Source: Candidatus Bathyarchaeia archaeon (GTDB lineage Archaea; Thermoproteota; Bathyarchaeia; Bathyarchaeales; Bathycorpusculaceae). From it: a stretch of 64,000 bases of DNA. The stretch covers positions 256,001 to 320,000 of the forward strand of contig JBEKHN010000001.1 in NCBI GenBank assembly GCA_050012255.1, written 5' to 3'. Positions within the stretch are counted from its first letter, which is position 1, and each line of letters begins with the position of its first letter. Below the pieces are notes generated by a model. It searched no databases and had not been told where the DNA came from. It saw only the letters and a list, made by a program, of their open reading frames with translations. Positions 25,406 to 61,733 of the stretch are shown piece by piece. Both the position numbers and the translations under genes were made by a program.

Positions 25406-25560
25406 TCCTCATAACAGGTATAGGCTTGACTTTCTTTGAACTGAGAAATTGAGGCTTGAGCACTTTGCAGCAGTGATTCTCGCCCGGTCTCGAACGTTAA
25501 GCTTAGACAGTAAAAGAGAAAGAGTTTCGAAAGAGCCCGCCCGCCACTTTCATGCTTGCC

Positions 25561-25765
25561 GCGCGCTAGCGTGTTCCTAAATTCTTTTGGGAAGTAGCTT
25601 GTACTGCTTATTCTGCTCTTCAACCATATTTGGGTCATGTAGAATACCCTGAGGGGGGAGGGTGTGAGCACGCAAGCACGCAGCTTGAACCGTGACAGTA
25701 ATCGTCGACCATGGGAAAACGCCATGCCTCCCTCTTGAGCATAATTTAGGAACAAGCACGCGCGC
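25561..25765. mobile_element. MITE-like element A, copy 1 (GCGCGC-ended TIRs)
   Basis: Ends GCGCGCTAGCGTGTTCCTAAATT ... AATTTAGGAACAAGCACGCGCGC; close inverted copy at 34248-34451. Confidence 0.8.
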
Positions 25766-25934
25766 TAATACCCAAAGTTTAAAACCAGTCTTTTGCAGAG
25801 TAGCATCTATAGCGCATGCTAAGACATACAAAGGAACTAACCCCACTGGGCCTAATGGTGAAATGGATGCGTAAAGGGTTGTTAGCGTTAGGAACGCGCG
25901 CGTGCTTATGGCAGAAAGACATGTCTGGAACAGA

Positions 25935-26232
25935 GCGCGCATGCCTGTTCCGAAAATGGTTAAAAATGGTCTTAATTCGCCTTTTGCGATTTAGAGGCAT
26001 TTTTGGGCTTCGCGTCTGTCTTCGTGCTTCTTTCAGTGCCCACGCTTCTCGAAATGTGCGGGCAGCCCGAAGGTGTTGGCCTGTGCGCTGTGATCCACTT
26101 ATCGTCAACACCCATGATTTTCCATCCTCACCACGGCTGAGACTGGCCTATCAGAGAAGCCCGAATCGGACGCAAAAAGGCAAAAGAAGAATAAAAACCA
26201 TTTTTGACCAATTTAGGAACACGCATGCGCGC
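25935..26232. mobile_element. MITE-like element B (about 44-bp imperfect TIRs, same terminal consensus as A)
   Basis: GCGCGCATGCCTGTTCCGAAAATGGTTAAAAATGG ... CCATTTTTGACCAATTTAGGAACACGCATGCGCGC. Confidence 0.8.
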
Positions 26233-26254
26233 TACTGTAAAGGAGGATGTATCT

Positions 26255-26827
26255 TTGAAGGACGTTGAGTTGAAGCTTATTTCTGAACTTATGAAGAACA
26301 GTCGCAGAAGCGACAGAGACTTGGCTAAAGCAATAGGAGTTTCTCAACCCACCGTATCGAGGATGATCAAAAAGCTGGAGAAAGAGGGCGTCATAAGGGA
26401 ATACACGATGATCCCTGATTTTAGCAAACTCGGATTCGAACTAATGTCTTTGGTAACCACAAAGGAGAATAGATTGCTCAGCGAAGAAGAAACTGAAGAA
26501 GCATGGAAGAAAGCTCGTGAAATGGCGAAGAAAATGCCCACGCCATTCCTTTTCGTCCTAAGCACTAAACCCTCAGCCGCTGACACAACCGCTCTTGCTT
26601 TGCACGAAAACTACTCGGATTACATCACATATATTAAGGGAATCAGGGAAAATCCGCTCGTAGGTATTGATGGTGTTGCGGGTTTCATCGCAGAGACGAA
26701 ACTCAAGAATCATTTTGTTCCCTTGACTCTATCTGAAGTGGCGAACTTCATAAAGAGAAGAGGACTAGCGAACAAGACCAAGAGCGTCCCCACAATCAAA
26801 GCAGGCAAGAGGGCAAAGGCTCCCTGA
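26255..26827 (+). CDS. Lrp/AsnC-family transcriptional regulator
   Basis: LMKNSRRSDRDLAKAIGVSQPTVSR..KKLEKEGVI HTH; GGAGG RBS before TTG. Confidence 0.88.
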   Translation: MKDVELKLISELMKNSRRSDRDLAKAIGVSQPTVSRMIKKLEKEGVIREYTMIPDFSKLGFELMSLVTTKENRLLSEEETEEAWKKAREMAKKMPTPFLFVLSTKPSAADTTALALHENYSDYITYIKGIRENPLVGIDGVAGFIAETKLKNHFVPLTLSEVANFIKRRGLANKTKSVPTIKAGKRAKAP

Positions 26828-26885
26828 CTACAGAGGTCTGGGCAGAAAGCGCGAAGGCAATAACTAAGGTTTCTGCGTGTTCAAA

Positions 26886-26921
26886 GTGTCTTGGGGTTTT
26901 GAAGATAAAACTTTACCCCAA
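26886..26921. repeat. Quasi-palindromic site, inverted copy at 40161-40207
   Basis: GATAAAACTTTACCCCAA (26904-26921) is the exact reverse complement of 40167-40184. Confidence 0.65.
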
Positions 26922-27232
26922 CCAACCATAACGACACCCTAGTTGGAAGAATTGGGGACCTAACAGAGGCGCGCGCGCTATCGCTGTGGCCGAAAAGGTG
27001 CTAAACCATGTCCAAATGTTGTTTCCCGGTTTGGAAAGCAAGACGGTGAAATCAAAGTTACCTTCAATTTCGCCGGTTGATTAGAAAGTGTGAAAAGGAA
27101 TGACAAGGAACGGTGAGCATCATAACTGTGTACCTCTTATTCCTGAGCGCGCGCAAACTAAATGTGAAACCACTGCAACAATACTGTTGGGTGAGCTTTG
27201 CGAAGGCAAGAAGAAACGAGACCGTCTAAAGG

Positions 27233-27420
27233 GCGCATGCGTGTTCCCAAAACGTTGAAAATGGTGTTTGTTCCTCTTTCATGATTTGATGGCAGTTTTG
27301 GGCCGCATATCTGTTCTGCGGGCGTGTTTGGGCGGAAATCCTATGCCTCTTATCATCCCTCAACACGGCCAAGAGTAGCCTATCAAACAAACCTGCACCA
27401 GACCCAGACAGGCAAAAGCA
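27233..27420. mobile_element. Degenerate, internally deleted copy of MITE B
   Basis: GCGCATGCGTGTTCCCAAAACGTTGAAAATGGT start; shares CATCC..CA.CACGGC, GCCTATCA and GGCAAAAG blocks with 25935-26232. Confidence 0.6.
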
Positions 27421-27531
27421 AGCGACTCACGAAGCAAAGGGTAAGCAACAATCTATCGGTAGTAGGACTTTCCTGCAATAGAGGTAGTCAACGCGGCTTA
27501 CAAGAATGAGAGTACGGTAAGAGTTATCTTC

Positions 27532-27630
27532 CTATCTTCTCTTCTGTTTCTTTCCGCCGCGAGCTCTTCTCGCCTGATGCCCCTTCTGCCTATCGATTGA
27601 TTTTCCCATAGGCTTACTTCTCCTACTCAT
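27532..27630 (-). CDS. Tiny basic protein (32 aa)
   Basis: MSRRSKPMGKSIDRQKGHQARRARGGKKQKRR with GGAGGTGA RBS, overlapping the upstream stop. Confidence 0.5.
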   Translation of the reverse strand: MSRRSKPMGKSIDRQKGHQARRARGGKKQKRR

Positions 27631-27910
27631 TTTCGTCACCTCCGCCTGAAGTTTGCTCGAGAACTGATTCCGCTCCTCTCGGATGCTTCTCCATCCAATT
27701 CAACGCATAGGCTTCTGCTTTCGATGCAGTCGCATACGCTGGTGATATAGCCTCTCCTTTATCATCAACCCTTACCCTGGGAAACAGCAGCACGACGTAT
27801 TGCGCTCCAAACTCTTTCTTTGTGACGACCAGATTCTGTCCCGTGGTCTCATTCACGAATCCTCGCTGTCGGTCCATTTTTCTCCAGCCTTCTACTATTT
27901 TCAATGACAA
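27623..27910 (-). CDS. Hypothetical protein (about 95 aa)
   Basis: TTG start with GAGG RBS, downstream of the RPA gene. Confidence 0.6.
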   Translation of the reverse strand: MSLKIVEGWRKMDRQRGFVNETTGQNLVVTKKEFGAQYVVLLFPRVRVDDKGEAISPAYATASKAEAYALNWMEKHPRGAESVLEQTSGGGDENE

Positions 27911-27942
27911 TTCCTCAGTCGTTCTTCTTTGGCCAGCAGGCC

Positions 27943-28587
27943 CTAAGAGCTGATCACGGCTTTCACCTGACAGCTTGACTCGTCGACGCTGCTGAGCAAG
28001 CTCTTTTTTCCAATGTTCAATTGCCTTTGGCCTTTGAACGTAGAAGCCCTTGCATTCTCGATCTGAATGGTGTCTCCAGCAGAAATGCAACGTATCTGCT
28101 CGTTCCAAAGACACAGTCTGATCGTTCCGGTTTCATCTGCTATCAGGGCATTTGCCACGCTCGCATAGTTTCCATAGCGCGTGTAGACCATGGTTGGCTT
28201 CGGAATCTCCAAGACCTTGGCCTTCAGACAAACCTGCGTCATCCCACTCCGCAGATCTCTGATTGGAAGAAGCGATGATTGCCTAGCCTTCTTGGCCAGG
28301 AATCTGCGTATCTTGTCAGTTTCCATGAAGTCTCTAATGGGGTGGCCTTTCTCCAAGAGGAATTCCTTAAATACTGAAAGCTGTGCAACAACTTTGGAAC
28401 TCGTCAGAATTAGAAACATGACCTTGTCCCGTGTTTCGCCCCGCCACTCGATTGAAAGGTCTCCGCACCTGGATTTTTCACTTTCTTCTGCCAAGATCAA
28501 CGCGTTGAAGAGCCTGTCGGGGTCGACATCATATTTTGCTGAAAGAAACGCGAGGTATTCGTTGGTTGATGTATTTTTCCTTCTCAA
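27943..28587 (-). CDS. RPA/SSB OB-fold single-stranded DNA-binding protein, paralogue 1
   Basis: IRDLRSGM..V.LKAKVLEI, ADETGTIRLCLWNEQ, FKGQRQLNIG. Confidence 0.85.
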   Translation of the reverse strand: MRRKNTSTNEYLAFLSAKYDVDPDRLFNALILAEESEKSRCGDLSIEWRGETRDKVMFLILTSSKVVAQLSVFKEFLLEKGHPIRDFMETDKIRRFLAKKARQSSLLPIRDLRSGMTQVCLKAKVLEIPKPTMVYTRYGNYASVANALIADETGTIRLCLWNEQIRCISAGDTIQIENARASTFKGQRQLNIGKKSLLSSVDESSCQVKAVISS

Positions 28588-28967: not shown

Positions 28968-29238
28968 TTTTTCCACCTCCAAACCATGAGAACATGATTC
29001 CATGATAGCTAGACTAGTCAGAACGATCAGAGAAAAAGCGTACTTCGCGATTAGACTCTTCCTCTAGAGAATCCCAACTGCTGCTAAAGGATGCGTCGCC
29101 AAGTATATAGGTCTATGCAGGCAGATTTGTGAAAGTGTCATCTGACACACACATCGTGCTCAGACCAGCGAGTTTCTCGAGTCTTTCGGCCTTTGGTCTG
29201 GGCGCGCTCAGACTCGTTTTTCGCTGGAAAGCATCATA

Positions 29239-29708: not shown

Positions 29709-29870
29709 ATACTATTTCAACTCCTGATATGCTGCTGTGCAAAAATCGCTTCTTACACGCTGCGCTAAGATTCGCGTCGGGGCTTATAAACAGAGCACCC
29801 TCAAATCGAGAAGTTATACATGTTTAAGAGCGAGACATGCGTTAGAAGGGTGTTGCAGTGGGGTATGCTT

Positions 29871-30140
29871 ATGTCTCAACCTGTTTATGGAACAATAGTG
29901 AACTATCGAATAGGCATCAGAACACAGATGCCAAAATGGTGCCTCATCCAAATCATGGGTGAAAATACAGTATCTAACGCAGGCCAGCTAGTTGGGCGAA
30001 AAATGATCTTGAAATTCGGAAAGAAAAGCTTCATCGGCAGAATCATGGACTTGCACGGCAAGAAAGGCGTTGTCAAAGTCAAATTCCGCGAAGGCGTACC
30101 TGGACAAGCACTAGGGGCAAGAGTCGAACTGCTTGGCTAG
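29871..30140 (+). CDS. rpl35ae: 50S ribosomal protein eL33 (L35Ae)
   Basis: GTIVNYRIG..TQ, LVGRK, GRI..LHGKKG.V..KF..G.PGQALG. Confidence 0.85.
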   Translation: MSQPVYGTIVNYRIGIRTQMPKWCLIQIMGENTVSNAGQLVGRKMILKFGKKSFIGRIMDLHGKKGVVKVKFREGVPGQALGARVELLG

Positions 30141-30453
30141 CGCGCGCCTTGCATTAAACTTGCTTGTTTCCGTTTGAACGTAAAGTACGCTTCTTAGACT
30201 AGAGCACGGGCCCTTTCCCCAGCACCATATGGCGTGCTGACACCATAGTGGCGATATCTCCCGCCAATCCCTCTTTTTTATACCACACGCACGCTCCACA
30301 TTAGCGCCCGCGACGACTTCAATAACTATAGACAGGTATGCCTAGCAGCTAAGCTATATAAGTGATGTTGAGAATATTGAGATGCACATTCCAGATCTAT
30401 TATTTTAGCGATAGATTTGTCGAGTGAAAAAAAGCAGAGTGGAAACAAGCTAG

Positions 30454-31143
30454 ATGGCTAAGCAGATTTGGAGAGCTAGAGGCAGGCCTCTTAACAGCAT
30501 GCCTTCATACAAAGATGGAAGGATTCTGGAGAACCTTGCCAGAATCGCGATGCAGCATAAGGTTGATTCGAGTGAATTCTTCAATCGCGTTGTCGAAGCT
30601 TGGAATCACGACGGGTCAGAATGTGCGCAGTTGGCTATAAAATGTCGTAAGAAGACGAAAAATTCAGCGATTTTTCTCTTTACCAACGGTCGGAAGCGCG
30701 CGCGGAAGGTTATAGCTCAATTTCCGATATCGATTGCCATCTTGCAAGGAAAGAATCAGCTCGAAAGCTACACAGAAACAATTTTGGCCAGAACTTCCTC
30801 AGTCAAGAATTTCGAGGGGGTAACCTCGAAGATTGGTAACTTGAAAGTCGGAATGAGAAAAGTCAGCCTGAAAGCAGAAGTGCTCGAGATTCCAGAATCT
30901 AAAATCGTCTACACGAGATATGGAACGACGGCTTGTATATCAAATGCACTTATCAAAGACGAAACTGGTTCAATGAAAATGAGTTTATGGAACCACCAGA
31001 TCAGCATGGTGCATAAGGGCGACGTAGTTGACATCAAAAATGGCAAAGTAACCTGGTTCAGCGGCGAAAGGCAGTTGCGACTGGGGAGAAGCGGAAGCTT
31101 AAGCGTCATCGAATGCGCGCGCACTATAAGAAGTGATTTTTAA
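30454..31143 (+). CDS. RPA/SSB OB-fold protein, paralogue 2
   Basis: IGNLKVGM..V.LKAEVLEIP, KDETGSMKMSLWN; similar to 27943-28587. Confidence 0.82.
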   Translation: MAKQIWRARGRPLNSMPSYKDGRILENLARIAMQHKVDSSEFFNRVVEAWNHDGSECAQLAIKCRKKTKNSAIFLFTNGRKRARKVIAQFPISIAILQGKNQLESYTETILARTSSVKNFEGVTSKIGNLKVGMRKVSLKAEVLEIPESKIVYTRYGTTACISNALIKDETGSMKMSLWNHQISMVHKGDVVDIKNGKVTWFSGERQLRLGRSGSLSVIECARTIRSDF

Positions 31144-31703
31144 TGCCGAAGACTAAAGCCATAGTACACATTCAAAACGTTGTTGCTTCTGCTACATTAG
31201 ACCAGAAGGTTGACTTGAACGCTGTGGTGAAGAGTTTCCCAGGAGTTGAGTATCGTCCAGAACAGTTCCCAGGACTTGTGTTTAGGCTTAAGAGACCGAA
31301 GACCGCCACGCTGATCTTCAACTCTGGAAAAATGGTGTGCACTGGAGCGAAATCGGAAAAAGAAGCGCGCAGGGCAGTTATGACAGTTGTTAAAGAGCTG
31401 AAAAGGAGTGGAATAATCATCATCAGCAAACCCGAGCTTAAAATTCAGAACATTGTTGCCTCCGTAAGCTTAGGCGGAAAGGTAGATTTGGAACAGGCAG
31501 TTGGCAAGCTTGGAAAAACCATGTATGAACCGGAGCAGTTTCCAGGATTGATCTACAGGATGGACGAGCCTAAGGTGGTCATACTGATATTCGCAAGCGG
31601 AAACCTTGTCTGCACCGGAGCGAAGAAAGAACAGGACGTTTACGACGCAGTGCAAAAGCTTCACGAAAGCTTAGAGGAACAAAACCTCATATTCTACGAA
31701 TAG
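31143..31703 (+). CDS. tbp: TATA-box-binding protein
   Basis: Two repeats IQN(V/I)VAS...Y.PEQFPGL...LIF.SG..VCTGAK. Confidence 0.97.
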   Translation: MPKTKAIVHIQNVVASATLDQKVDLNAVVKSFPGVEYRPEQFPGLVFRLKRPKTATLIFNSGKMVCTGAKSEKEARRAVMTVVKELKRSGIIIISKPELKIQNIVASVSLGGKVDLEQAVGKLGKTMYEPEQFPGLIYRMDEPKVVILIFASGNLVCTGAKKEQDVYDAVQKLHESLEEQNLIFYE

Positions 31704-31775
31704 AACTTCATACGTTAATGGCCTAGCGCACGCTAAGATCCTAAAACCCAAGAAAGGTCCATGTTGAAGCAGGAG

Positions 31776-31950
31776 TTACTTGAACGATCGATCGACTTCA
31801 AGGTTTGTTGGCATAAAATGAAGCCTAAATGATTTTGCAGCCTTCAACTTGGCTTGTTCGTACTCCTTCTCAACTCCATAGTAAAGTAGATTGGCCGCTT
31901 CTCTCGCAATTCTTTTTCTTGAACTGATAGAATCGACTGTCACGAATTCA
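31776..31950 (-). pseudogene. Truncated N-terminal fragment of an archaeal nucleotidyltransferase-type protein
   Basis: RKRIAREAANLLYYGVEKEY.QAKLKAA...PTNLEV, then a premature end; family call from memory. Confidence 0.5.
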
Positions 31951-31993
31951 CCGAAAAACTCCGGGATAGACGTCGGACTACCCCGCTCCAAGC

Positions 31994-33244
31994 TTAGCGT
32001 TTGATGATCTGTTCATAAAGCCCCAGTGTTTTTTCAGCTATCTTGTCCCACGTGAACTCGTTCAGGACTCTGCGTCTGCCGTTTTTGCCCAGCCACTTTC
32101 TTTTCTCATCGTTTTCCAAGACGCTGTTTATGCCCCAAGCTATGTCTGATGGGTTGCTTGGATCTATGTGATAACCGCACTGTTCTTCGCCGTAATACAC
32201 GACTATCTCCCGCATACCGCTGATGCCAGCTGCACCGATGACAACTGGTCGGCCCATACTCATTGCCTCCAGAACGACTATTCCGAAGGGTTCATAGAAG
32301 CTTGGGAAAACAGCGACATCGCAGGCTGCATAGTGAAGGATTCGTTCTTCCTCAGGTATGAATTCAAACCTGAGCTTCACGTAGTCACTCATTTTCGTGG
32401 CCTTGACCAAATTCATTAGGTATTCTTGCAAGTCGCCTAGACCCACAATTACAAGCTTCGTCTTTGGATTTTTCTGCAGAACGTGGGGTAACGCCATGAT
32501 AAGCTTGTCAACGCCTTTGACGCCACTGAGTCTGCCTATGAAAAGAATCATGTAGTCATCGTCTCTGATATCATACATCGCCCTGATTTTCTTGATCTGC
32601 TCAGATGTAACTGTTGCTGGATCGTATTTCTTTGGGTCGACCCCGTTGTAAGCAACTTGGATCTTTTCTTTCTGGCAGCCTAAGCCTACCAGCTCATCCT
32701 TCATCGCATAAGAAACTGTCACGACAAGGTCAGCCGCCCTGGTGGCGGCGAGTTCAATGTTGCTCACCGTAACCGAGCCCTTTCCAAGCGTTCTTCCTTT
32801 CTCTGTTGAGTGAACGTGGAACGCAAAAGGCAATCCTGCCTCTTTCTTAACAGCCATTCCCCCTATAGCTGAAAGCCAGTCATGAGCAACTACGAGGTCG
32901 TATTTGATACCTTCCTTTCTTATGAGTTCATTTACGAGTTTTGCAGCGCTCAGACAATTGTACACGAGCATTTTTGAGAACCACTGTATCCCACTACCCC
33001 ACTTCTTTATGTCTTCTGCAACTACGTCGGGCAACGAGTCAGAAATGTCAAGGTGCAGCGGCCGGTGGATTTCGATACCTCGCCAAATCTCACGCGTCGG
33101 TAGGCCATTTGCATCATCATTCATGGTGAAAACTGTAACGTCATTGTCCATGAGAACAAACTGGCGAGTTATTTCAGCCGAGTAGGTTCCCAAGCCACCG
33201 ACGATCGTTGGGGGATACTCGTAGACCAGAACAGCAAGCTTCAC
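31994..33244 (-). CDS. GT4 glycosyltransferase (glycogen-synthase-like)
   Basis: EYPP.IVGGLG, AHDW, HSTE, GRL..KG, PSFYEPFGIVVLEAM motifs. Confidence 0.9.
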   Translation of the reverse strand: MKLAVLVYEYPPTIVGGLGTYSAEITRQFVLMDNDVTVFTMNDDANGLPTREIWRGIEIHRPLHLDISDSLPDVVAEDIKKWGSGIQWFSKMLVYNCLSAAKLVNELIRKEGIKYDLVVAHDWLSAIGGMAVKKEAGLPFAFHVHSTEKGRTLGKGSVTVSNIELAATRAADLVVTVSYAMKDELVGLGCQKEKIQVAYNGVDPKKYDPATVTSEQIKKIRAMYDIRDDDYMILFIGRLSGVKGVDKLIMALPHVLQKNPKTKLVIVGLGDLQEYLMNLVKATKMSDYVKLRFEFIPEEERILHYAACDVAVFPSFYEPFGIVVLEAMSMGRPVVIGAAGISGMREIVVYYGEEQCGYHIDPSNPSDIAWGINSVLENDEKRKWLGKNGRRRVLNEFTWDKIAEKTLGLYEQIIKR

Positions 33245-33316
33245 TGTTTCTCATCGTTGCCCGTTTCTTAATAGTCCCTTACTGATTATCACGCGCGCGT
33301 GTTTCGCAAGGTTTTC

Positions 33317-33604
33317 CTACTCTTTTGCGAGGGTTATTTCCATTGTTGAAACCATCCGTGCTCTGTTTTCGCCTTCTCTTGCTGGCATCTCCTCCGTTCC
33401 GATAGCGATTTTGCTCACTTTTAGGTCTTTTAGGAAGCGATTTCTGGTTATTTCAGCTACGTCAACAGCTGTAGTGATCGCTTGTCCTCTTGCTTTCAAA
33501 ACTACTTCCTTAGCATCGCCAGCCGATAGTCTTGTCATGACTGCCAGAACATAGTCCATTGGTGGTTTACTTCCAATGAAAACAATTGCCGATTTTTCCG
33601 ACAT
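33317..33604 (-). CDS. albA: DNA/RNA-binding protein Alba
   Basis: [34 protein letters not shown] motifs. Confidence 0.95.
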
Positions 33605-33861
33605 TTCAAATCACTCCTTTCATCATTAATTGTAACGTGCAACGTTGTTGTGTTCTTCCGGTCTCTCAACAACAGAACGCTGTTGCCCTTATACTACGCA
33701 TACTTCCTTATAAAGCGAAAAGACAACAGAGTAGCCTAAGGATATTTTCACAGCTCCCAAATCCTAGATTCCGGCCTTAGACGCAGCATTCACTTCGCAT
33801 TTAGGTGAAAGTTATAATCCTTGTTTGTTGTTACTATTTGATTCTAGGAAGGAAGATTTGT

Positions 33862-34247: not shown

Positions 34248-34451
34248 GCGCGCATACTTGTTCCTAAATTCCGTTCACGAGGGGTGCATGGCGTTTTCCG
34301 ATGGTCGATGGTCACTGTCACGGTTCAGCTGGGTGCTTGCGTGCTCACACCCTCCCCCCTCAGGGTATTCTACATGACCCAAATATGGTTGAAGAGCAAA
34401 ATGAGGAGCACAAGCCACTTCCCAAAAGAATTCAGGAACACGCTAGCGCGC
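34248..34451. mobile_element. MITE-like element A, copy 2 (inverted relative to copy 1)
   Basis: Reverse complement aligns with 25561-25765 end to end, including an identical core GTGCTTGCGTGCTCACACCCTCCCCCCTCAGGGTATTCTACATGACCCAAATATGGTTGAAGAGCA. Confidence 0.85.
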
Positions 34452-34616
34452 GGAAGAAGCGCGAAGAAACTGAAGAGAACGCAAAAAAGCGACTTTTAGC
34501 CTCTCATCCTTATAAGCTGGGCTGATAATGTATATTGCAAGAAAGGCGTGCTAACTAACTTATCGCAACATCATTTGCCGTAGGACTAGCTTGCTTTTTC
34601 TGAAGGGTATTACAAC

Positions 34617-35127: not shown

Positions 35128-35398
35128 CGCGCGCTTAATGAAGGGCAACTGCCTATTTTTAGGCGTCGATCTGCAAGCGCTTCTTACACTTGGCCGGGAT
35201 TCGAATGAAGAAGAGTGAAGAGAAAATCAGTAATTGGGCGTTCACCTCGCACGCATTGGGAATCACAGAGGAATGCTCGAAGAAAGCCTGAAGAAATTCA
35301 GGTCATTAGAGGATATATCCAATGAGCAGAGAAGGAAAGATGCAAGTCTACCCCCTCTACTTGTACCGATATGAGTAGCGGGCAGATATTGAAACGCA

Positions 35399-37751: not shown

Positions 37752-37840
37752 CGTTTCACCTCCTTCACACTCTATCATCTGCTACGGCGCGCGCTAACCT
37801 AAGAATGACAAGTTTCAATCCGCCACGTAGATCTAGTTTT

Positions 37841-39187: not shown

Positions 39188-39373
39188 ATGGTTCGGTGCT
39201 CATGTGGAACAGATAACTTGGAGAAGAAATTCTGCACGGACTGTGGTAAGCAATTACTGTATGATTGCGGAAAATGCAAGAAACTTGTAGCTATAACGGA
39301 GAAATTCTGCGGAACATGCGGGACTGAGAACCCTCATTATGACGCTAAGGCATATAGCACACGGCCGCGCTAA
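39188..39373 (+). CDS. Double zinc-ribbon protein
   Basis: CSCG..N...KFCTDCG...CGKC...KFCGTCG. Confidence 0.8.
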   Translation: MVRCSCGTDNLEKKFCTDCGKQLLYDCGKCKKLVAITEKFCGTCGTENPHYDAKAYSTRPR

Positions 39374-39600
39374 GCAGATTCTCTCTTTTTGCGTTATTGC
39401 CCCACCCAAGCAGCTTTTCTTGGTAGTCTCGCCATTGCGTTTTTACGTAAGGCCCTAGACTTTCTATATCGCTAGCCCCCACGAAGGTCAATCGATGTTG
39501 ACCCCCACTGCTAGATTAACTCAAGACATCGTGGCTATAGTATGTCTGCGTCCTGAAAGCGAAATTTCAACTGATTCGTTGCTTAATAACCTTAAAGGAA

Positions 39601-39865: not shown

Positions 39866-40160
39866 TCACATTATCGTCAATGAAAAAACCTTTCCATTTA
39901 ACGTCACACTTTTTGCGGGGAACCTTCAACCCTGCGATCGCGCCTTCTCCTGCAAAGAGACAAAAGCACCCTAATAACAGTAGCACGCGCGCAGTGACTA
40001 CGAGTGAAACATACGAGGTCAAACTGGCATTAAACATAAAAGAAATAACTAAAATGCTACGACAAACCAAATGGGCTTACATCTGGGCAAAAAACTCAAA
40101 ATCCCTCTTTTTCTCTTCATCGATGAGCATCAACATTTGTGATGGCGTGAATTGAGTAGC

Positions 40161-45816: not shown

Positions 45817-45995
45817 TTAGCGTTGAGCTGTCAGTGAAAAGTAAGAACTTGTGGAGACGACACCGCAGATCTCAAAGAAGTCAGAAATCTTGTCGGCTGT
45901 CTGTGCAAAGTCATACTCGCTTGTTGCTAAGAGTCCTGAGTCATCTTGATACGAGACTGTGAATACAATGCTTCTGATGGCAGTGTCAGGCAACA
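45817..45995 (-). pseudogene. 3' fragment of an unknown gene, cut at the (GC)n junction
   Basis: VLPDTAIRSIVFTVSY...SLTAQR* reads open from the junction at 45996. Confidence 0.4.
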
Positions 45996-46004
45996 CGCGC
46001 GCGC

Positions 46005-46459
46005 TAGGCCAAGGATACTCCGGTAACATAACTGTAACAGCTGAAAACCTAGGCGGCTACACTGAAACCTTCAACATCACAGCATACGCCAACACAACCA
46101 TCATAGCATCAGAAAGCGTTACCTTACCAGCCGGCAACTCTACGACAGTCACGTTCGTTTGGAACAGTACTGGCTTTGCTTACGGCAATTACACCATAAG
46201 CGCTTATGCTCTGCCTGTACTAGGCGAGACAAACACGGCGAACAACAATTTCACAGGCGGCGTGGTGACAGTTACTTTTCCAGGCGACGTCAACGGCGAC
46301 GGCACTGTTGACATCTATGACGCCATACTGCTATCTGGCGCCTTCGGTTCCAGTCCAGGCAGTCCAAAGTGGAACCCCAACGCAGACCTAAACAACGACG
46401 GCATCGTAGACATCTACGACGCAATCATACTCGCAGGCAACTATGCAAGAACAGCCTAG
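46005..46459 (+). pseudogene. 3' fragment of a surface protein (CARDB-like Ig domain plus dockerin)
   Basis: GQGYS.NITVT.EN.G...ETFN, GDVNGDGTVDIYD and ADLNNDGIVDIYD; no signal peptide; begins at the (GC)n junction. Confidence 0.8.
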
Positions 46460-46621: not shown

Positions 46622-47154
46622 TTGCGTGACTGCGAGAGAAGTCGCAGTGTACTCCAGCCATCGATCTTGATTTTTATAATTGCATTTGCAGTTGTGGTCC
46701 TGCCTTCACATTCTATTGCAGAAGTGGACTGGTGGTCGACGTTTCATCATGATCCGTTACATACTGGCTATTCGACTTCGGCAGTTCCATCTACGAATAG
46801 AACCATTTGGAACTTCACGACTGGCAGCGTGCTGGAATCTTGTCCCGCAATCGTCGGCGACGAACTGTTTTTCGGTTCTGGCGACGGCAACTTCTACGCA
46901 TTAAACGCTTCAACCGATACTCAGATATGGAACTATGCGACAGGAGGCGTATTGTTTCCTCCCCAGCATTCTTCAATGATATGGTCTTCTTCGGTTCAGG
47001 AGATGCGAACGTCTATGCTTTAGACTGTTCAAGTGGAAGTCTTCTGTGGAACTATAGAACCGCACGCAGAGTTATCTCATCTCCAACGTTTTCCGACGGT
47101 GTTGTCTACGTCGGCTCCTATGACCATAATGTCTATGCTCTGAACGCTTCACGG
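46622..47154 (+). pseudogene. PQQ-like beta-propeller surface protein, frameshifted and truncated
   Basis: Signal peptide, WSTFHHD..HTG, GS.D.N.YAL repeats; frameshift near 46949; ends at GCGCGCGC 47155. Confidence 0.8.
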
Positions 47155-47291
47155 GCGCGCGCATCTTTGAATATGGACCGTCGCTATTCGATGCATGAAT
47201 CTTAAATTCTCACTAGTCGCCCGTTTCCGACTATGCACCAGTTTAATGCATTAAACGCGGTGCGCGATAGTGTTTCGCGCGCGAGTGCAAT

Positions 47292-48557
47292 CTACAACGT
47301 AGTTGTGTGAACTCCATTGGAATGATCACGGGATTGATTCAGTGCTTCTTGTGTTAGGACTTCTTCGGGGTCCAGTTCCCATATGCGGATGATTCTTATT
47401 AGGTCGACTATTTTGCTGGCTTTGGTCCTTGGTTGTATGCTGAGGCCAGATGCTACGTAGATTCCTCGCAGGAAATCGACCCCTTTCATCTTGACGTCGT
47501 GGTAGACGCTCAAGGTGTGACCCATCATGTACTCGACGTAGTCGCGTTCTGTGCCCGTTGAGATCATTTGAGTTAGGAAGAATTTTCGGAGGCTGTGAGC
47601 CGTTAGATCGTATCTTTTGATTTTTGGGGTCCTAGTCAATACACCGGCTCTGACGTAGAGCGTGTTGACTATATCCTGAATTGTCGCCGCGTCTAAAGGT
47701 TTGATCCCACGATAACTGCTGATCAAAGGCGATTCGTCATCGAGACGCTCTCGTGGTCCTATTTTCCCGTTTTTCCGGGCGTCTAGGTAGGCTTTTAGGT
47801 ATTCTGAAGCCTCGCTGTTTAGAAAAGTGTCGTAACCATGGTGTTTACCCTTTGTTATTTCTGGTTCAACGTGAACGTGGATGGGAATTGTTCCTTTTTC
47901 TAGGTCTTGTTTAACGTGGCGATATTTGAGTTGAACTAGGGTTCCGTTTCGAAATCCGCCGACCGCCATCAGAGCGATTATGACCTTACCGCGGATGTCT
48001 GCTACCTTCAAGGTCTTCTGGAGTTCATCAGGTGTGGGTGCACGTTCCTCGTAAATGCTCCATTTGGATCTCCGACAGGGTTTATTGAATCTTACTCCGT
48101 TAAGTTGGAAGAAGAACTGTATCCCTTTTGCCATGTTGTAGACCGTGGCTGGGGCCATGCCTTTCTCTTCTTGCAGATTGTCGGCGAAGTCTGCGAGGAG
48201 ACGCTCCATTTGAATGACGACCTTAGGTATTGGAACTTGATCCTTTCCTTTGCAGTCGTTCAGAAGCTCATCGGGACTTTTTTGTAGCCATCTGCTGAAG
48301 CGATATATGTCATATATCTGATTGCGAAGCGTGTGCAGACTGCCTGTTCGGTGACGTAACAGATGTTTCGCGACCTCTATGGTTGTGGAGTTTTCGAAGG
48401 TGAATGGCGCCAACTTAGGATGCCATCTAATGAAGGTGTTTATAACATATTGGCGAAGTTTTCTGTCGGCTACACTTTCTGTTTCAGGGATCTCGAGGGT
48501 GAAAGGCTGTTTAAGTCTGCGTCCACTGGGGCCCCTGGTTATGGTAAGGGATTTCAT
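47292..48557 (-). CDS. Tyrosine recombinase (tandem pair, gene 2)
   Basis: GGFRNGT, TKGK, AHSLRKFF, YMMGH..SVYH motifs. Confidence 0.9.
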   Translation of the reverse strand: MKSLTITRGPSGRRLKQPFTLEIPETESVADRKLRQYVINTFIRWHPKLAPFTFENSTTIEVAKHLLRHRTGSLHTLRNQIYDIYRFSRWLQKSPDELLNDCKGKDQVPIPKVVIQMERLLADFADNLQEEKGMAPATVYNMAKGIQFFFQLNGVRFNKPCRRSKWSIYEERAPTPDELQKTLKVADIRGKVIIALMAVGGFRNGTLVQLKYRHVKQDLEKGTIPIHVHVEPEITKGKHHGYDTFLNSEASEYLKAYLDARKNGKIGPRERLDDESPLISSYRGIKPLDAATIQDIVNTLYVRAGVLTRTPKIKRYDLTAHSLRKFFLTQMISTGTERDYVEYMMGHTLSVYHDVKMKGVDFLRGIYVASGLSIQPRTKASKIVDLIRIIRIWELDPEEVLTQEALNQSRDHSNGVHTTTL

Positions 48558-49909
48558 TCATACGCACCCGTTGACTCTGGCAGAGAACCACTCCGCTGAT
48601 AATTTTGCGAAGCCTTTGATGAGATTAGAGTATCTCTATTATCGGCTTGCTCCTGCTTTGTAGTCGGAGTGATTTGCGTCAGGGCTTCACGGGTGAGGAT
48701 TTTCTGCGGGTTTAGCCCCCACGTTTGAAGTATTTCTTTCAAGGCATCGATTTTGTTCATTTTGATTCTCGGTCTTATGCGTATTCCGGATGTCGTGTAC
48801 ACGCCGCGTAGATATTCGACACCCTTCATCCTAACATCATGGTATCGATCTTTCACTGCGCGGCCCATCATGAAATCAATGCAGTCTGGATCAACTTCAA
48901 GCGAGGCCATTTGGGTTCGGAAAAACCTCCTGAAGCTGTGGGTTCTCAATTCATATCTTCTGCGCAAAGAATTCTTTTCTAGTAAGCCGGTTCTAACATA
49001 GAGATTGTGAATCATCTGGTGAACCGTCGTAACAGCCACCGTTTTAACTTGTTTGCAGCGGCACGTCCTGATCAAAGGTGATTCATCCCGTATTTGCTCT
49101 GGCGGAATTTTCTTTGTGCCTATTTTGCGAGCTTTAAAGTAGGCTCTAAGGCACTCTGATGCTTCATCGTTCAAGAAAGTGTCGTAACTGCGCCGTTTGC
49201 CCTTTATCAGTTCCGACTCGACGTGAATGTGAATTGGGATGATGTCTCGTTCAAGGTCATCCTTCACGTGTCGATACTGAAGTCTTAGAAGGGTGCCTAC
49301 GCGGAGGCCGCTGACTGCCAACGTTGTGATTATGACTCTTTCACGAAGGTCTGCCAAATCTAGAATCTTTATGAGCTCCTCGCGTGAAGGGGCTCGCTCA
49401 TTGTACAAATTCCAAACGCTCAACCCGTAGGGTAATCTAAGTCCTACGCCATTGATACGGAAGACGCTTGTGATGTTTTTCAAGCGACTCCTTATAGTGG
49501 TCGGCGATAGGTTCTTTGCTTGCAGTTGGTCAATGTATTCGTCAAGTGCGCTTGTCATCCTAGCTATTCCTTTTGGGTTGGCATCTCCATTCGACTTTCG
49601 GCACCTGCTCATAAGCTGGTCAGGCTCGGCCTTAATCCATCTGCAGAAACAATTGAAGTCGTCAACGTATTCGTAAAGAGTGAACTGGCTCCCTGTTCTG
49701 TTGAATAGCAGATGTCTCGCAACCTCCATTGTGGAGAAGTTCTTGAGAGTAAAAGGTATTAGAGGGGACCTTCTGCTCAACGATTCCCAAATGTACCGTA
49801 AGAGTTTCTTTTCTGCCCCATTCTGTCTTTCTGGGACTCTTAGCGTCAACGGTTTCTTGAACCTCCCGCCACGAACCCCTCTTTCTATGACTAAGGTTTT
49901 GTATTTCAT
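48554..49909 (-). CDS. Tyrosine recombinase (tandem pair, gene 1)
   Basis: SGLRVGT, IKGK, THSFRRFF, FMMGR...RYH motifs; ATGA overlap with gene 2. Confidence 0.9.
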   Translation of the reverse strand: MKYKTLVIERGVRGGRFKKPLTLRVPERQNGAEKKLLRYIWESLSRRSPLIPFTLKNFSTMEVARHLLFNRTGSQFTLYEYVDDFNCFCRWIKAEPDQLMSRCRKSNGDANPKGIARMTSALDEYIDQLQAKNLSPTTIRSRLKNITSVFRINGVGLRLPYGLSVWNLYNERAPSREELIKILDLADLRERVIITTLAVSGLRVGTLLRLQYRHVKDDLERDIIPIHIHVESELIKGKRRSYDTFLNDEASECLRAYFKARKIGTKKIPPEQIRDESPLIRTCRCKQVKTVAVTTVHQMIHNLYVRTGLLEKNSLRRRYELRTHSFRRFFRTQMASLEVDPDCIDFMMGRAVKDRYHDVRMKGVEYLRGVYTTSGIRIRPRIKMNKIDALKEILQTWGLNPQKILTREALTQITPTTKQEQADNRDTLISSKASQNYQRSGSLPESTGAYE

Positions 49910-50088
49910 TTCCACAATTCTCCGATTCTCAGAATCTTCGGACTTCAGATTTAAAAAACCATGGTTGGCGCCGAACATTAACATAACTCGAAAACAGCTA
50001 TTTCCTCCGACTTCCGAACACAAATTCAAATGCGCGCGCTAAGTTTGTTTAGAGGCTCCCCCTGAGTACGCGCGCGCTAAGAATTTTG

Positions 50089-57895: not shown

Positions 57896-58351
57896 CAGTG
57901 TTTTTGCGTTGTACTGTACTCAGGTTGTACGGACATACAATATGTCCTAGGGCGAACCTATTCTACAACTAACAATGGTGAAAAGTGCCAATTAAACATT
58001 ATGTAAGCGTGTTGAACACATGTAGAGTTTAAACTCTTGGGAGGGTGCGCGGGCGAAATCACATCATAGATGGCCACTGCGCCGTGTCAGTCAAAGCTTA
58101 AGTCAGTGTTCAGCCTAGTGTTTTGTCTTGTACTGGCGTGTGCTTTATGCAATCGGCTTAGCGCGCGCGTACAGTCGCGTAGCGGATTGCGTAGAACAGC
58201 TGGAATATTGTTCTAGAACAGTCTACCGTATGTTTTATACTGTATCGTTTAAATATCGGAAGCCTGAAGACTAGTTGGGGTGGAGAAGAGAGAACGCGCT
58301 CATTGCGGTCTTGAGAATTCTTATCTGCTCCTAGTGAGGAGGGATTGACTA

Positions 58352-58738
58352 ATGGAAAGTGTGTTGAGCGAGGATGTGGTTTCGGAGGTTAGGAGTCAGT
58401 GGAAGCGGATGTGGAGGGAGCGGATTGATGATCGTGTTCGGGCGGAGGGTATCGCGCTTACGGATTATGATAAGTTGTTTGTTGAAAGGGGCACTGTGGT
58501 TTTGGCAACGAGGAGCTTTAAATTGCTGACCTTGCGCGAGATATTTGAGATGCACAAGGTTGAGAATATTGACCGCCTTGTTCAGCCGAGCCCGGAGGTG
58601 GGTGGATGGGGCAAGTTCGTACGGACTCATATCACAAGCGTCAAACTCGCACGTCAGAAAAGGGCTCAGTCGTTTGATTTGGACGAGAAGAAGCCGCAAC
58701 AGCTTAAGAAGGGCGGGCGCGGTTGGCTGCACATTTAG
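58352..58738 (+). CDS. Hypothetical protein
   Basis: 128-aa ORF with GAGGAGG RBS. Confidence 0.7.
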   Translation: MESVLSEDVVSEVRSQWKRMWRERIDDRVRAEGIALTDYDKLFVERGTVVLATRSFKLLTLREIFEMHKVENIDRLVQPSPEVGGWGKFVRTHITSVKLARQKRAQSFDLDEKKPQQLKKGGRGWLHI

Positions 58739-58820
58739 ATCAAGTGTTTGATTTTTAGCTTGTCGTGGTTCTAGGTTACGTTCTCTTGTTCAGCGTAAAC
58801 CTGATTTAGGAGAGAGGATT

Positions 58821-59177
58821 TTGGCCAAGTATAGACGCAGGTTCGACATCATAGCGGACATGGTTCGCGTTGCCAGCTCCGGTGCAAAGAAGACAAAGAT
58901 CATGTATTTTGCTAATCTAAGCTATCTTCTGTTGAACAGGTATTTGGACGATGCTTTGCACACGGGGCTCTTGCGTTTCAACGGAGAAAAGTATACGACG
59001 ACGAGAAAGGGCGGAGCTTTCTTGGAGCGGTACAATGATTTTCAAAGCAGATATTCTCGAGTGAACGCTGATTTGGAAGAATTGAAGTCCGAGGCTGAGA
59101 CGTTGGAGAGGATGTGTCGTTCGCGGCGCTTGAACAATAGGAACGCGAAGAAGAGTAGGTCTACGGCGCTGGTTTAG
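58821..59177 (+). CDS. Archaeal winged-helix transcriptional regulator
   Basis: YRRRFDIIAD...GAKKTKIMYFANLSY.LL.RYL...Y..T.KG..FL. Confidence 0.85.
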   Translation: MAKYRRRFDIIADMVRVASSGAKKTKIMYFANLSYLLLNRYLDDALHTGLLRFNGEKYTTTRKGGAFLERYNDFQSRYSRVNADLEELKSEAETLERMCRSRRLNNRNAKKSRSTALV

Positions 59178-59351
59178 CTTGTTTACACCTTATGCTCGGA
59201 TTTTTTGCGGTGAGGGTCTTTGGCTCAATTTTGCGTAAAGTTTAAGTTAGGCTTCAGGCAAGGTAGAAGATTTTTATAGAACAAGATTCCTGATTGATTT
59301 AAATTGGTCGCAGTGAGGAGTATCCATAGAATTTGAGCAGCTGTAGCGGTA

Positions 59352-60065
59352 TTGGTGAATCAATTGTTAGGGGAAGGCCATCGAGGCGCTGTGCTAGCGA
59401 TTATTGCCGCTCTCAACGAGGAAGAGGGCATCGGGTTTACGATAGCGGAGCTGCGCCAGTATTTGGAAAATGTGCCTGTTCTTGTAGTTGATGGGCACAG
59501 TGTGGATCGTACTGTTGAGGTGGCCAAGAAGTTCGATGCTGAGGTTGTTTTTCAGGAAGGAAGGGGCAAGGGGAATGCTGTTGCCAAGGCGATTGAAGAA
59601 GTTGATTATGATCCGCGTTATGTTATTCTCACTGATGCAGACTTCACTTATCCTGCTGAGTATGTTCCGAAAATGTTGAGTGTTCTGGAAGAGAACTCGG
59701 ACGTGGGTATGGTGGCTGGAAACAGATTCAACTCACATTTTCACTTGAAAGGGATGAGGAACAGATTCTACGTTGGAAACAGGCTCTTGGCTTTCACGCA
59801 TAACCTTTTCAACGGAGTTGGCATGCGTGATCCCCTGACCGGGTTAAGAGTGCTTCGCTGGGAAGTTCTAAAGGGTTGGAAGCCTAAGTCCAAGGGTTTT
59901 GATGTTGAGGTTGAGTTGAACCATCTCGTCGAGAACAAGGGCTTCACAATCGCCGAGGTGCCGATTCATTATAGGGATCGGCTTGGCGAGAAAAAGTTGA
60001 AGCTTAGGCATGGGTTCACGATTTTCAATAGAATACTTGCTGAGAGCGTGCGCGAACGAGTCTAA
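59352..60065 (+). CDS. GT2 glycosyltransferase (copy 1)
   Basis: ALNEEEG, VDG.S.D.T, GKG, TDADFTYP, DPLTG, GFDVEVE motifs. Confidence 0.9.
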   Translation: MVNQLLGEGHRGAVLAIIAALNEEEGIGFTIAELRQYLENVPVLVVDGHSVDRTVEVAKKFDAEVVFQEGRGKGNAVAKAIEEVDYDPRYVILTDADFTYPAEYVPKMLSVLEENSDVGMVAGNRFNSHFHLKGMRNRFYVGNRLLAFTHNLFNGVGMRDPLTGLRVLRWEVLKGWKPKSKGFDVEVELNHLVENKGFTIAEVPIHYRDRLGEKKLKLRHGFTIFNRILAESVRERV

Positions 60066-60268
60066 GAGACTCGAACTAAAAGAGCACGCGCGCCTAACCT
60101 CTTTGTCGTCCGGGACTTGATATAATGTGGCTATTTTTCGTTATCCTCGCAGAGGGTGCTAATTCTTGAACGGCCTGTCTGATCTGATGTTATGTTTCAA
60201 TTTGAGCCTTCAGCCATTCGAGAAGACTATTCCTTGCCATTCTTTGCCTTGGGCAATCATTTTTTCCT

Positions 60269-60475
60269 TTATTCTTCCAGAACCTTGGGATTCTCTGCGA
60301 CTATGACTGAGAAGATTGGAGCGGTTTTTTCTGGCGGTGGTTCCTTTCTTTGCAATGTGCTTTTGGAGCCCATGTAGACAAGGCTCCATCCGACTAGCCA
60401 GAAGAGCACTGCAGCGGGCAGGAGTAACAGAATGACCGCTTTGTTGCGAACGCGCATGTTTCTAGGCGGCCTCAA
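60269..60475 (-). CDS. Small membrane protein
   Basis: One strong TM helix (VILLLLPAAVLFWLVGWSLVYMG). Confidence 0.55.
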   Translation of the reverse strand: MRPPRNMRVRNKAVILLLLPAAVLFWLVGWSLVYMGSKSTLQRKEPPPEKTAPIFSVIVAENPKVLEE

Positions 60476-60971
60476 CGTAATGCCTGGCCAGAACTTCGCG
60501 GAACGAGGAAATAAGCGTTATTGACACGTAAATATGTCATTGCTCATTGAGAACGGTTTGTTTTCGTTTTTGGGTGAAAGGTTGATGTCTGAAGCGAAAC
60601 ATTTGGAGCTTTGCACGAAGGTTGGAGTTGAGGTGGTTGGGCGCGACAAATATGAAAGAGAAAACGGAGGCAAAGGATCCAAGACCAAGAAGTCTCGTGT
60701 CTTTCTAAAATTCATTCTGAAGGTGTTGCAAGTTCGCTATGTGCAATTCCGTACCATACTGGCCACCCAATACTATTTTATAAGCAAGGCTAATCATTTT
60801 AGGGGACGAAGGTTTAGGAAGGAGAAGGAAGGAGAAGAGAAATGAGTTTGAGCAAAGTTTTTGAATTGGATCCTGCAAACATGGACGATTGCCCTAGAAG
60901 CGCGCGCTAAATGAGTCGCTGTGAAGGTTAGATTCAGAGTTTGAGAAGCTCAAATGTTGCTGGTGCACTGA

Positions 60972-61664
60972 ATGTATGGAGAAGGCTCTGTCGTAGCTAT
61001 TATTGCCGCTCTCAACGAAGAGGAGGGTATTGGACTTACGATAGCGGAGCTACGGCAACATTTGGGGGACCTGCGTGTTCTGGTTGTTGACGGCAGAAGC
61101 ATCGACCGGACTGTTGAGCTGGCCAAGAACTCGGATGCAACCGTGGTTTTTCAAGAAGATGTGGGAAAAGGTGACGCGATAGCTAGAGGGATTCGAGAAG
61201 TCGATTGTGATGTGGAATATGTGGTTCTTACGGACGCGGATTACACTTATCCCGCAGAATACATCCCAATGATGTTGAAGATCTTGGATGAGAACCGAAA
61301 CGTCGGCATGGTCTGCGGAAACAGGTTCAATTCGCATTTTCATCTACGTGCAATGAACAATAGCTTCTACGCTGGCAACAGAATGCTGGCCTTAGCGCAT
61401 AACCTGTTTAACGGTGTCAGCCTGCGTGATCCACTGACCGGGCTGAGGGTTGTACGCTGGGAGATTTTGAAGGATTGGAAGCCTAAGTCCAAGGGTTTTG
61501 ATGTTGAGGTTGAGTTGAACCATCTCGTCGAGAACAAGGGCTTTACAATCGCCGAGGTGCCGATTCATTATAGGGATCGGCTTGGCGAGAAAAAGTTGAA
61601 GCTTAGGCATGGGTTCAGAATTTTCAATAGAATACTCGCTGAGAGCGTCCGCGAACGAGTCTAA
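60972..61664 (+). CDS. GT2 glycosyltransferase (copy 2)
   Basis: Same motifs as copy 1; the 3' about 200 nt are nearly identical. Confidence 0.9.
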   Translation: MYGEGSVVAIIAALNEEEGIGLTIAELRQHLGDLRVLVVDGRSIDRTVELAKNSDATVVFQEDVGKGDAIARGIREVDCDVEYVVLTDADYTYPAEYIPMMLKILDENRNVGMVCGNRFNSHFHLRAMNNSFYAGNRMLALAHNLFNGVSLRDPLTGLRVVRWEILKDWKPKSKGFDVEVELNHLVENKGFTIAEVPIHYRDRLGEKKLKLRHGFRIFNRILAESVRERV

Positions 61665-61733
61665 GAGACTCGAACTGTAAGATTAGCTCCAGCGCGCGTT
61701 GCCTAACTTCGTCGTTGTAGGAGACTCGATCCA

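Follow-up and report, generated by a model that had tools for sequence, protein, structure and literature searches.

Alternating GC runs as probable scars of illegitimate rearrangement in a Bathyarchaeia archaeon and its relatives

We carried out a comparative analysis of short alternating GC tracts, here called (GC)n runs, in a 64,000-nucleotide stretch of the genome of a Candidatus Bathyarchaeia archaeon (the window; contig C1, positions 256,001 to 320,000, with position 1 being the first letter of the stretch). Our results indicate that the runs are probably scars, i.e. short filler at the joints of illegitimate rearrangements, and that this holds throughout the genome and the genus as well as in other lineages of the class. 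Runs coincide with breakpoints between related genomes, they lie at the joint of the short allele while being absent from the long allele, and at two loci the run-bearing deletion is the derived state. Most runs are specific to one lineage. An earlier annotation of the window (the first-pass annotation) had proposed a local recombination or cassette-shuffling system with the motif as its crossover core, target or scar.

Runs at breakpoints and indel joints

The source genome (G000; 2.35 Mb in 38 contigs, 48% GC, 98.5% complete) was compared whole with G001, the complete genome of a member of the same genus (a single contig of 2,346,764 bases), to which it is ca. 92.6% identical over 1.5 Mb of whole-genome alignment. 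A run was defined as at least 6 bases of alternating G and C, and gene and intergenic DNA were distinguished by crude open reading frame (ORF) calls. The best non-overlapping alignment blocks of at least 500 bases covered 1.49 Mb and yielded 747 block ends away from contig ends. Eighty of these ends have a run no more than 5 bases away, compared with 2.5% of random intergenic positions (binomial P ca. 7e-27); for runs of at least 8 bases the corresponding values are 49 of 747 and 1.5% (binomial P ca. 3e-17). Homology blocks end at runs about four times as often as random intergenic positions do, which bears out the association that the first-pass annotation had wanted checked by aligning related genomes. 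An unbiased test of all 6-mers, in which 20-base windows at block ends were compared with all intergenic windows, ranked GCGCGC first (78 seen, 17 expected), followed by words overlapping it and then by GCACGC, its one-step decay product.

From 213 colinear pairs of neighbouring blocks, 111 clean indels were obtained, with the extra segment present in the source genome in 67 cases and in G001 in 44. In 24 of the 111 (17 + 7), a perfect run of the form A(GC)3-5T sits exactly at the joint of the short allele while neither end of the long allele carries one, and six further clean indels show a run with one mismatch at the joint. Pure insertions of an 8-base run were also seen, two in each direction. 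In one example, the bare consensus aGCGCGCGCt is found in place of 302 bases at G001:1529991-1530294, whereas other fillers include 2-5 bases of GC-type flank microhomology or up to about 29 additional bases. The 19- and 25-base filler tails have no copy elsewhere in the genome with up to two mismatches allowed and are present only at their own place, which rules out that long fillers were copied from another location. The long alleles represent real genes, including those for UbiA, a cohesin protein, GNAT, MFS and DUF996, and Pfam domains were detected in five of the six tested. Joining of BssHII-like restriction ends, an alternative listed by the first-pass annotation, does not fit because long alleles have no such site at either end.

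A further 102 events are replacements. Among their 204 junctions, a run is present in one genome only at 46 and in both at 3. Over all 747 block ends, the run is found only in G001 at 112, only in the source genome at 57, in both at 21 (of 190 run-bearing ends) and in neither at 557. Runs are rarely present on both alleles and are thus not fixed sites, since site-specific exchange would retain the site on both. Of the three roles originally proposed for the motif, that of a scar therefore fits the data and that of a crossover core does not, while the role of target applies only to the transposable elements of the IS5 type described below.

An integron-like site-specific cassette system, in which a recombinase would cross over within (GC)n, is largely refuted by these counts, and we regard it as very improbable. 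Similar to cassettes carrying integron attC sites, modules of gene size have a recurring palindrome at their boundaries and are found in different contexts, and a tandem pair of tyrosine recombinase genes in the window is bracketed by the runs at 47276-47283 and 50032-50039, as the first-pass annotation had noticed. Unlike attC sites, however, the archaeal runs are not accompanied by a conserved recombinase, are not shared between alleles and appear de novo, and they have no flank consensus beyond A/T, so that arm sites are missing. The recombinase family has about five copies in the source genome (including copies on C6, C7 and C8) and none in G001, which nevertheless carries 989 runs. The tandem recombinases are therefore ruled out as the agent, and the suggestion that they act on the motif had to be dropped. 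They are passengers bracketed by runs and not their cause, and the paired family is probably a mobile element in its own right.

Polarity of the run-bearing alleles

At two loci, the direction of change could be assigned. The DUF996 gene (C4:49508-50069) and the MFS gene (C12:15367-17009) are intact both in the source genome and in G007, a genome about equidistant from the source genome and G001 (four loci), and a (GC)n joint is found in G001 only. The G001 alleles are hence derived deletions with (GC)n filler. The DUF996 locus has been altered in three genomes: G001, G003 and G009 show independent deletions or replacements whose right boundaries, beside the neighbouring gene, fall within ca. 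14 bases, with a GC run in G001 only.

Several observations weigh against reading the runs as joint scars. No run is present in either allele of 63 of the 111 clean indels (42 + 21), some of which are ordinary insertions of insertion sequences (IS) or integrative elements with direct repeats, and the independent deletion of G003 at the DUF996 locus contains a 12-base filler without a run. The UbiA scar aGCGCGCGC occupies the identical position in G001 and G007, and the boundaries of the joint at C1:151889-152422 match in the same two genomes (as judged from the boundaries). A scar position common to both genomes means that the scar there is old or was exchanged, and these two run alleles may be old or may have been exchanged by homologous recombination. 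The UbiA and GNAT genes occur in few or no other genus mates, and either allele may be the ancestral one at those loci. Of 47 runs in aligned DNA, 28 are conserved and 14 differ by substitution, leaving 2 pure insertions and 3 mixed cases. The breakpoint comparison repeated in family f26, using two genomes too divergent for the test (G111 and G105), showed a run no more than 3 bases away at 3 of 26 block ends. Finally, both the A...T flank preference and the two-hexamer-tail idea set out below draw on length counts, and no enzyme responsible for the runs was found among the candidates examined.

Abundance, location and taxonomic spread

In the window, GCGCGCGC has 13 overlapping matches while dinucleotide-preserving shuffles yield 0.60 on average and 3 at most, in keeping with the earlier claim of a chance expectation below one. 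These matches fall at 12 places, the extra match being due to the 10-mer at 26969-26978. For CGCGCGCG, 9 matches were counted (0.60 expected), located at 9142, 25895, 33292 and 47276 and in overlaps of longer runs. The positions given by the first-pass annotation proved accurate, both for all 12 copies of GCGCGCGC and for CGCGCGCG, and every 6- or 7-mer that it listed is present (25560, 25759, 25935, 26227, 34248, 34446, 35128, 39986, 60087 and 61692); additional hexamers at 29202, 31365 and 50522 were absent from its list. The first 25 kb contain no GCGCGCGC, as it had stated, along with four 6-7-mers and a single CGCGCGCG. GC content is 0.41-0.50 between 25 and 62 kb, and 19 of the 28 runs within 25.5-61.7 kb are intergenic.

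Throughout the source genome, GCGCGCGC is the commonest octamer, with 434 sites (ca. 185 per Mb), 16 times the first-order Markov expectation. Alternating runs of at least 6 bases number 919 and are nearly all 6-10 bases long. The base before the run is A in 62% and the base after it T in 56%, and nothing further is common to the flanks, which indicates that the runs do not represent the termini of a single repeat family. Among runs with G as first and C as last base, 355 are 6 bases long, 176 are 8, 55 are 10 and 2 are 12. Other words also stand out in this genome: CCCTAGGG and GGGGAGGG/GGGGGAGG are further over-represented octamers under a maximal-order Markov model, and GCATATAC is 5.7 times over-represented.

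As the most over-represented palindromic word, GCGCGCGC resembles the highly iterated palindromes (HIPs) of cyanobacteria. HIPs reach 500-2500 sites per Mb, a cognate methyltransferase is found wherever they are frequent, and in the proposed model sites are gained by substitution under repair bias, as set out by Elhai 2015 (PMC4390886). HIP1 and its alternates share several properties with the archaeal motif, being GC-rich palindromic octamers that constitute the commonest genome word, are lineage-specific and are replaced or absent in relatives; GCGCGCGC itself is not mentioned in that paper. A palindrome of this kind, made or kept by a methyltransferase together with mismatch repair bias, could thus be envisioned, and the source genome does encode two C5 methyltransferases. 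We nonetheless judge this explanation extremely improbable. Archaeal runs are less dense than HIPs, are mostly intergenic in variable DNA, avoid gene bodies and arise as insertions at rearrangement joints and not through substitutions, only 14 of the 47 runs in aligned DNA differing by substitution. Further, no C5 methyltransferase tracks the runs: neither enzyme was found in G001, G009 or most genus mates, and both are therefore ruled out as strain-specific, N4-cytosine methyltransferases lying outside the test. The catalytic core of the first enzyme resembles M.HhaI while its target-recognition region does not align; one of the two lies beside an HhH-GPD glycosylase. The latter pair (L002) is located together with a tyrosine recombinase on a 38 kb segment not present in G001 (G000:C6:4368-42749), which is flanked by direct repeats ending in tRNA-like sequence and is probably an integrated element.

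Runs are concentrated outside genes. In the source genome, 280 of the 368 runs holding (GC)4 (ca. 76%) lie outside crude ORFs, i.e. in 17.5% of the genome, and in G001 this applies to 374 of 455. Inside ORFs, 47 of 93 runs fall within 60 bases of the ORF end; the 6-7-mers are evenly spread instead. Runs clump (variance/mean 3.1 per 10 kb), and their density decreases with increasing coding density (rho -0.48). Only 47 of 393 runs of at least 8 bases lie inside the 1.49 Mb aligned with G001, the rest being in unaligned DNA, where run density is about tenfold higher. Enrichment is seen in both intergenic and variable DNA, the two contrasts that the first-pass annotation had recommended for checking, and its statement that most sites are intergenic holds for the window and the genome alike. 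This location, together with a stop triplet after the run at 111 of 488 sites, would also be compatible with selected functional elements at gene ends, such as terminators, insulators or protein-binding sites. We give this idea scarcely any credence: tandem, divergent and convergent spacers do not differ in run density, which rules out a terminator or promoter role, and runs are enriched in variable and not in core DNA and appear together with deletions.

The motif is not confined to one genome. The motif AGCGCGCGCT has 74 copies in the source genome and 7-114 in all 10 genus mates, compared with 0-1 in 20 genomes that belong to different genera within this family and order; the reversed-sequence control gave 0-4. 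Among 201 sampled genomes of the class, 19 qualify as motif-rich (at least 13 copies with a control of at most 5), and these are scattered among families f1, f26, f27, f29 and f35. Run anatomy in the distant family f26 is the same as in the source genome: of the 79 runs in 390 kb of G111, 68 are intergenic, 57 are preceded by A and 66 are followed by T. The notion of a local system has to be abandoned, given that runs occur genome-wide, genus-wide and in other families of the class. As the distribution is patchy, the factor involved may be transferable or may have been lost repeatedly. An assembly artefact, another alternative raised at the outset, is ruled out by the evidence of 11 genomes and of four independent metagenome runs. 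Full-text searching of the literature, supplements not included, returned no description of GCGCGCGC abundance or of GC fillers in archaea.

Mobile elements and transposon footprints

Several families of miniature inverted-repeat transposable elements (MITEs) of 160-300 bases have ..GCnTGTTCCTAAAT-type inverted repeats in common and GCGCGC at their boundaries, and the first-pass annotation was right that the local MITEs end in this hexamer. One MITE family is adjoined by short tandem arrays of TTTTGCATATACG in the source genome (e.g. C2:95436, C3:9013, C1:14486). A 1.08 kb element at G001:389080-390160 is likewise GCGCGC-bounded, carries terminal inverted repeats and encodes a DUF772 + DDE_Tnp_1 transposase split over two ORFs. 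Together with the terminal inverted repeats and a short target duplication at a palindrome, these domains place the IS and MITEs, as opposed to the runs, in the IS5 family. IS5 itself has a 4-base target habit. MITE insertion into (GC)4 converted an 8-base run into 6 + 6 or 8 + 6 bases at three polymorphic sites. REP/REPIN sequences are likewise abundant extragenic palindromes used as targets by IS elements; unlike them, the archaeal runs, at 8-10 bases, are too short for REP hairpins and have no longer consensus.

The runs could, conversely, be excision footprints of cut-and-paste transposons with GCGCGC ends, of which each end would leave a few bases in place, with deletions resulting from composite or aberrant excision. 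They resemble Tc1/mariner or hAT footprints in that a short palindromic remnant lies between the flanks, and TA commonly lies outside the run as it does outside many of the GCGCGC-bounded elements. At C3:43055-43218, the occupied arrangement TA-GCGCGC..MITE..GCGCGC-TA faces TA-GCGCGCGC-TA in the other genome, and a run lies within 300 bases of 24 of the 76 contig ends of the source genome. We nevertheless consider this explanation unlikely. The only run-linked element, the IS5-type family surveyed here, is missing from several motif-rich genomes, so that this family is not available as a source in every genome that would bear footprints. The repeat core TGTTCCTAAAT is at background in three motif-bearing genomes (0 copies in G009, 1 in G004 and 1 in G008, with 82, 39 and 56 copies of AGCGCGCGCT, respectively), and an IS5-like transposase was detected in only six of the 19 motif-rich genomes and in none of five from family f35, compared with 27 of 50 genomes of the motif-poor family f24. 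This dissociation rules out the IS5-type IS and MITEs as the source of the runs. In addition, only 157 of 1838 run flanks in the source genome cluster into repeat families, and the long alleles contain no element at the future joints.

Proposed joining mechanism and candidate agents

Returning to the interpretation of runs as joint scars, we propose that illegitimate joining of unrelated DNA ends, leading to deletion, insertion or translocation of gene-sized pieces, would deposit (GC)n filler. Runs would then accumulate in variable non-coding DNA, as joints within needed genes are lost, would later decay by point mutation and would serve secondarily as insertion targets for IS5-family elements and MITEs. 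Based on the run lengths, we infer that a self-complementary GCGCGC unit on each end might bridge the two ends by pairing in registers of 6, 4 or 2 bases, so that products would measure 6, 8 or 10 bases and hardly ever 12. More tentatively, several lineages of the class may possess a patchily inherited, possibly horizontally spread end-joining activity that adds such a self-complementary GCGCGC tail or adaptor to any broken ends; we consider this conceivable but hold it with considerable reserve.

Vertebrate interstitial telomeric repeats are inserted at sites of break repair, often accompanied by a deletion and by microhomology of a few bases, and thus also represent a fixed short repeat at repaired-break joints. 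In the present case, however, the filler is self-complementary, the host is an archaeon whose genus mate G001 consists of a single contig, and no RVT_1 reverse transcriptase was found in the source genome (98.5% complete), nor were PolX or Prim-Pol. Ku/LigD end joining, as known from bacteria and Methanocella, produces deletions whose joints contain an untemplated filler of a few arbitrary bases, and the source genome encodes a complete bacterial-type operon of this kind (G000:C10:11572-14468; L137), consisting of LigD primase-polymerase, Ku and an ATP-dependent ligase fused to LigD phosphoesterase. Seven of the 10 genus mates share the operon, as does one of 20 neighbouring genomes from different genera. 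This genus-level association vanished in the 201-genome class sample, where Ku and the LigD polymerase were found in 5 of 19 motif-rich genomes and Ku in 55 of 201 overall, mostly motif-poor and chiefly from families f24 and f34. Ku/LigD is consequently ruled out as the agent; moreover, the archaeal filler is a fixed palindrome and not arbitrary. No multi-copy gene family stood out near runs among the 25 largest families of G001.

If such GCGCGC end joining exists, every illegitimate joint would be stamped with the same palindrome, and filler of defined sequence would be new to prokaryotic repair. The process would drive gene-sized deletions and the shuffling of modules, with each event leaving a readable record. 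If the runs are joint scars, they record the places of gene loss, gain and movement, and loss and gain could be counted directly in uncultured archaea of peat, sediment and wetland. A fixed palindromic filler, which Ku/LigD, reverse transcriptase, transposase, recombinase and methyltransferase do not explain, points to a joining chemistry undescribed for bacteria or archaea. The patchy spread over families should make the responsible gene approachable by phylogenetic profiling, and joining of arbitrary ends by an adaptor would be of interest for building DNA tools.

Features of the window

The window is syntenic with G001 over positions 1-25,128 and mosaic beyond (Table 1). Measured against G001 alone, a block end is found no more than 8 bases away from 9 of the 28 runs between 25.5 and 61.7 kb. 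Two of the gene truncations that the first-pass annotation had associated with runs, that of a dockerin gene and that of a PQQ gene, coincide with a run, at 45996-46004 and 47155-47162, respectively. DNA resembling the window is present in metagenomes of peat, sediment, wetland and wastewater (10 studies), and independent contigs from four other public metagenome runs (four studies) were compared with it.

Table 1. Runs, mobile elements and run-associated genes in the window (window positions)
Feature	Position	Strand	Remarks
MITE copy A	25560..25765 (ca. 206 bp)		CGCGCGC ends at 25560-25566 and 25759-25765; beside TGTTCCTAAAT-type inverted repeats; many copies in G001 and G007
CGCGCGCG run	25895..25902		In DNA not alignable with G001
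MITE copy B	25935..26232 (ca. 298 bp)		GCGCGC at both ends (25935-25940, 26227-26232)
(GC)5 run	26969..26978		Intergenic, unaligned DNA
(GC)4 run	27147..27154		Intergenic, unaligned DNA
(GC)4 run	30140..30147		Overlaps TAG stop of ribosomal protein L35Ae gene (29820-30140); re-used boundary
Degenerate run GCGCCCGCG	30304..30312		Within 11-base filler TTAGCGCCCGC between shared flank and inserted module
3.46 kb module	30312..33771		Ssb-like OB-fold protein 30454-31143; TBP 31143-31703; GT4 glycosyltransferase 31994-33244 (-)
Run in Ssb-like ORF	30696..30704		Part of 12-base in-frame insertion relative to G001 paralogue
(GC)4 run	31115..31122		28 bases before stop of ORF; length varies between populations
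One-mismatch run GCGCACGC	31726..31733		At start of 224-base insert (31714-31937) absent from G001
CGCGCGCG run	33292..33299		Upstream of GT4 gene; G009 homology resumes at 33300
MITE copy C	34248..34452 (ca. 205 bp)		GCGCGC ends; conserved in G001
CGCGCGC run	35128..35134		Intergenic; G001 has GGCGCGC
(GC)4 run	37787..37794		Intergenic; identical in G001, i.e. an older, inherited run
CGCGCGC run	39986..39992		Unaligned DNA
CARDB + dockerin C-terminal gene fragment	45959..46459	+	Begins at run 45996-46004; G001 homology starts at 46007
PQQ-like beta-propeller fragment, two frames	46622..47205	+	Ends at run 47155-47162; G001 homology ends at 47159
CGCGCGCG run	47276..47283		8 bases past stop of first tyrosine recombinase gene
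Two tandem tyrosine recombinase genes (421 + 491 aa)	47292..50029	-	Bracketed by runs
(GC)4 run	50032..50039		2 bases past start of second recombinase gene
CGCGCGCGC run	50069..50077		G001 homology starts at 50076
GCGCGCGCG run	58161..58169		Intergenic; glycosyltransferase region not aligning with G001
CGCGCGC run	60087..60093		Between glycosyltransferase genes
(GC)4 run	60900..60907		Between short ORFs
GCGCGCG run	61692..61698		Between genes

A module that occupies different places in the two genomes is among the features listed, and its TBP gene marks the organism as an archaeon. Window positions 30301-33783 are missing at the corresponding place in G001, and the 3.46 kb module sits at G001:870337-873576 instead. 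Its end there abuts GCGCGCGC, and its left joint in the window consists of TTAGCGCCCGC. The G001 region that holds the module has 29 runs over 20 kb, and block ends coincide with runs there. The run at 30696-30704, which is part of an insertion that keeps the frame, shows that runs can enter coding sequence under this condition.

Several of these joints recur in the metagenome contigs. Contigs of metagenome run X7 show joints from 30148 to 33829 and from 30290 to 33784, a replacement of 31730-31989 by the filler CTTCGCGCGCGCT, and an additional GC behind 31114, i.e. a change in GC length. A filler ...GTGCGCGCT is found in the independent contigs at a joint from 39201 to 39519. Contigs of other metagenome runs break or jump at the edges of MITE copy B (25934, 26231 and 26234), and loose contig ends were found at 25561, 25934, 26234 and, in X7, 33293.

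One boundary in the window has been used repeatedly. At 30140-30147, a run that G001 retains as GGCGCGC, the window, G009 and metagenome run X7 diverge, and homology between G009 and the window stops at 30148 and resumes at 33300, positions that represent the edges of two runs. Such re-use would be expected if existing (GC)n tracts were fragile or recombination-prone (Z-DNA-prone) and attracted breaks, and some indels indeed start at a run kept by both alleles. In addition, both genomes carry a run at 21 block ends. According to a survey (PMC4060949), prokaryotes generally suppress or avoid alternating GC. As an account of the runs as a whole, we find fragility decidedly unlikely, since it leaves their origin unexplained: the long alleles of the 24 indels described above lack a run, and most runs are specific to one lineage. 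Further, selection alone can yield re-use beside essential genes such as that for L35Ae. Z-DNA fragility, which the first-pass annotation had named as an alternative, may add to the re-use of runs while not explaining how they arise.

Two further features of the window were noted. A low-GC island (0.37-0.42) at 9480-16304 breaks the synteny with G001. Modules composed of an OB-fold Ssb-like gene and a TBP paralogue, sometimes accompanied by a GT4 gene, are present in multiple copies, among others at window positions 27943-28587 and 30454-31703 and at G001:872175-873576 and 1416533-1417916, and lie in variable regions of several members of the genus.

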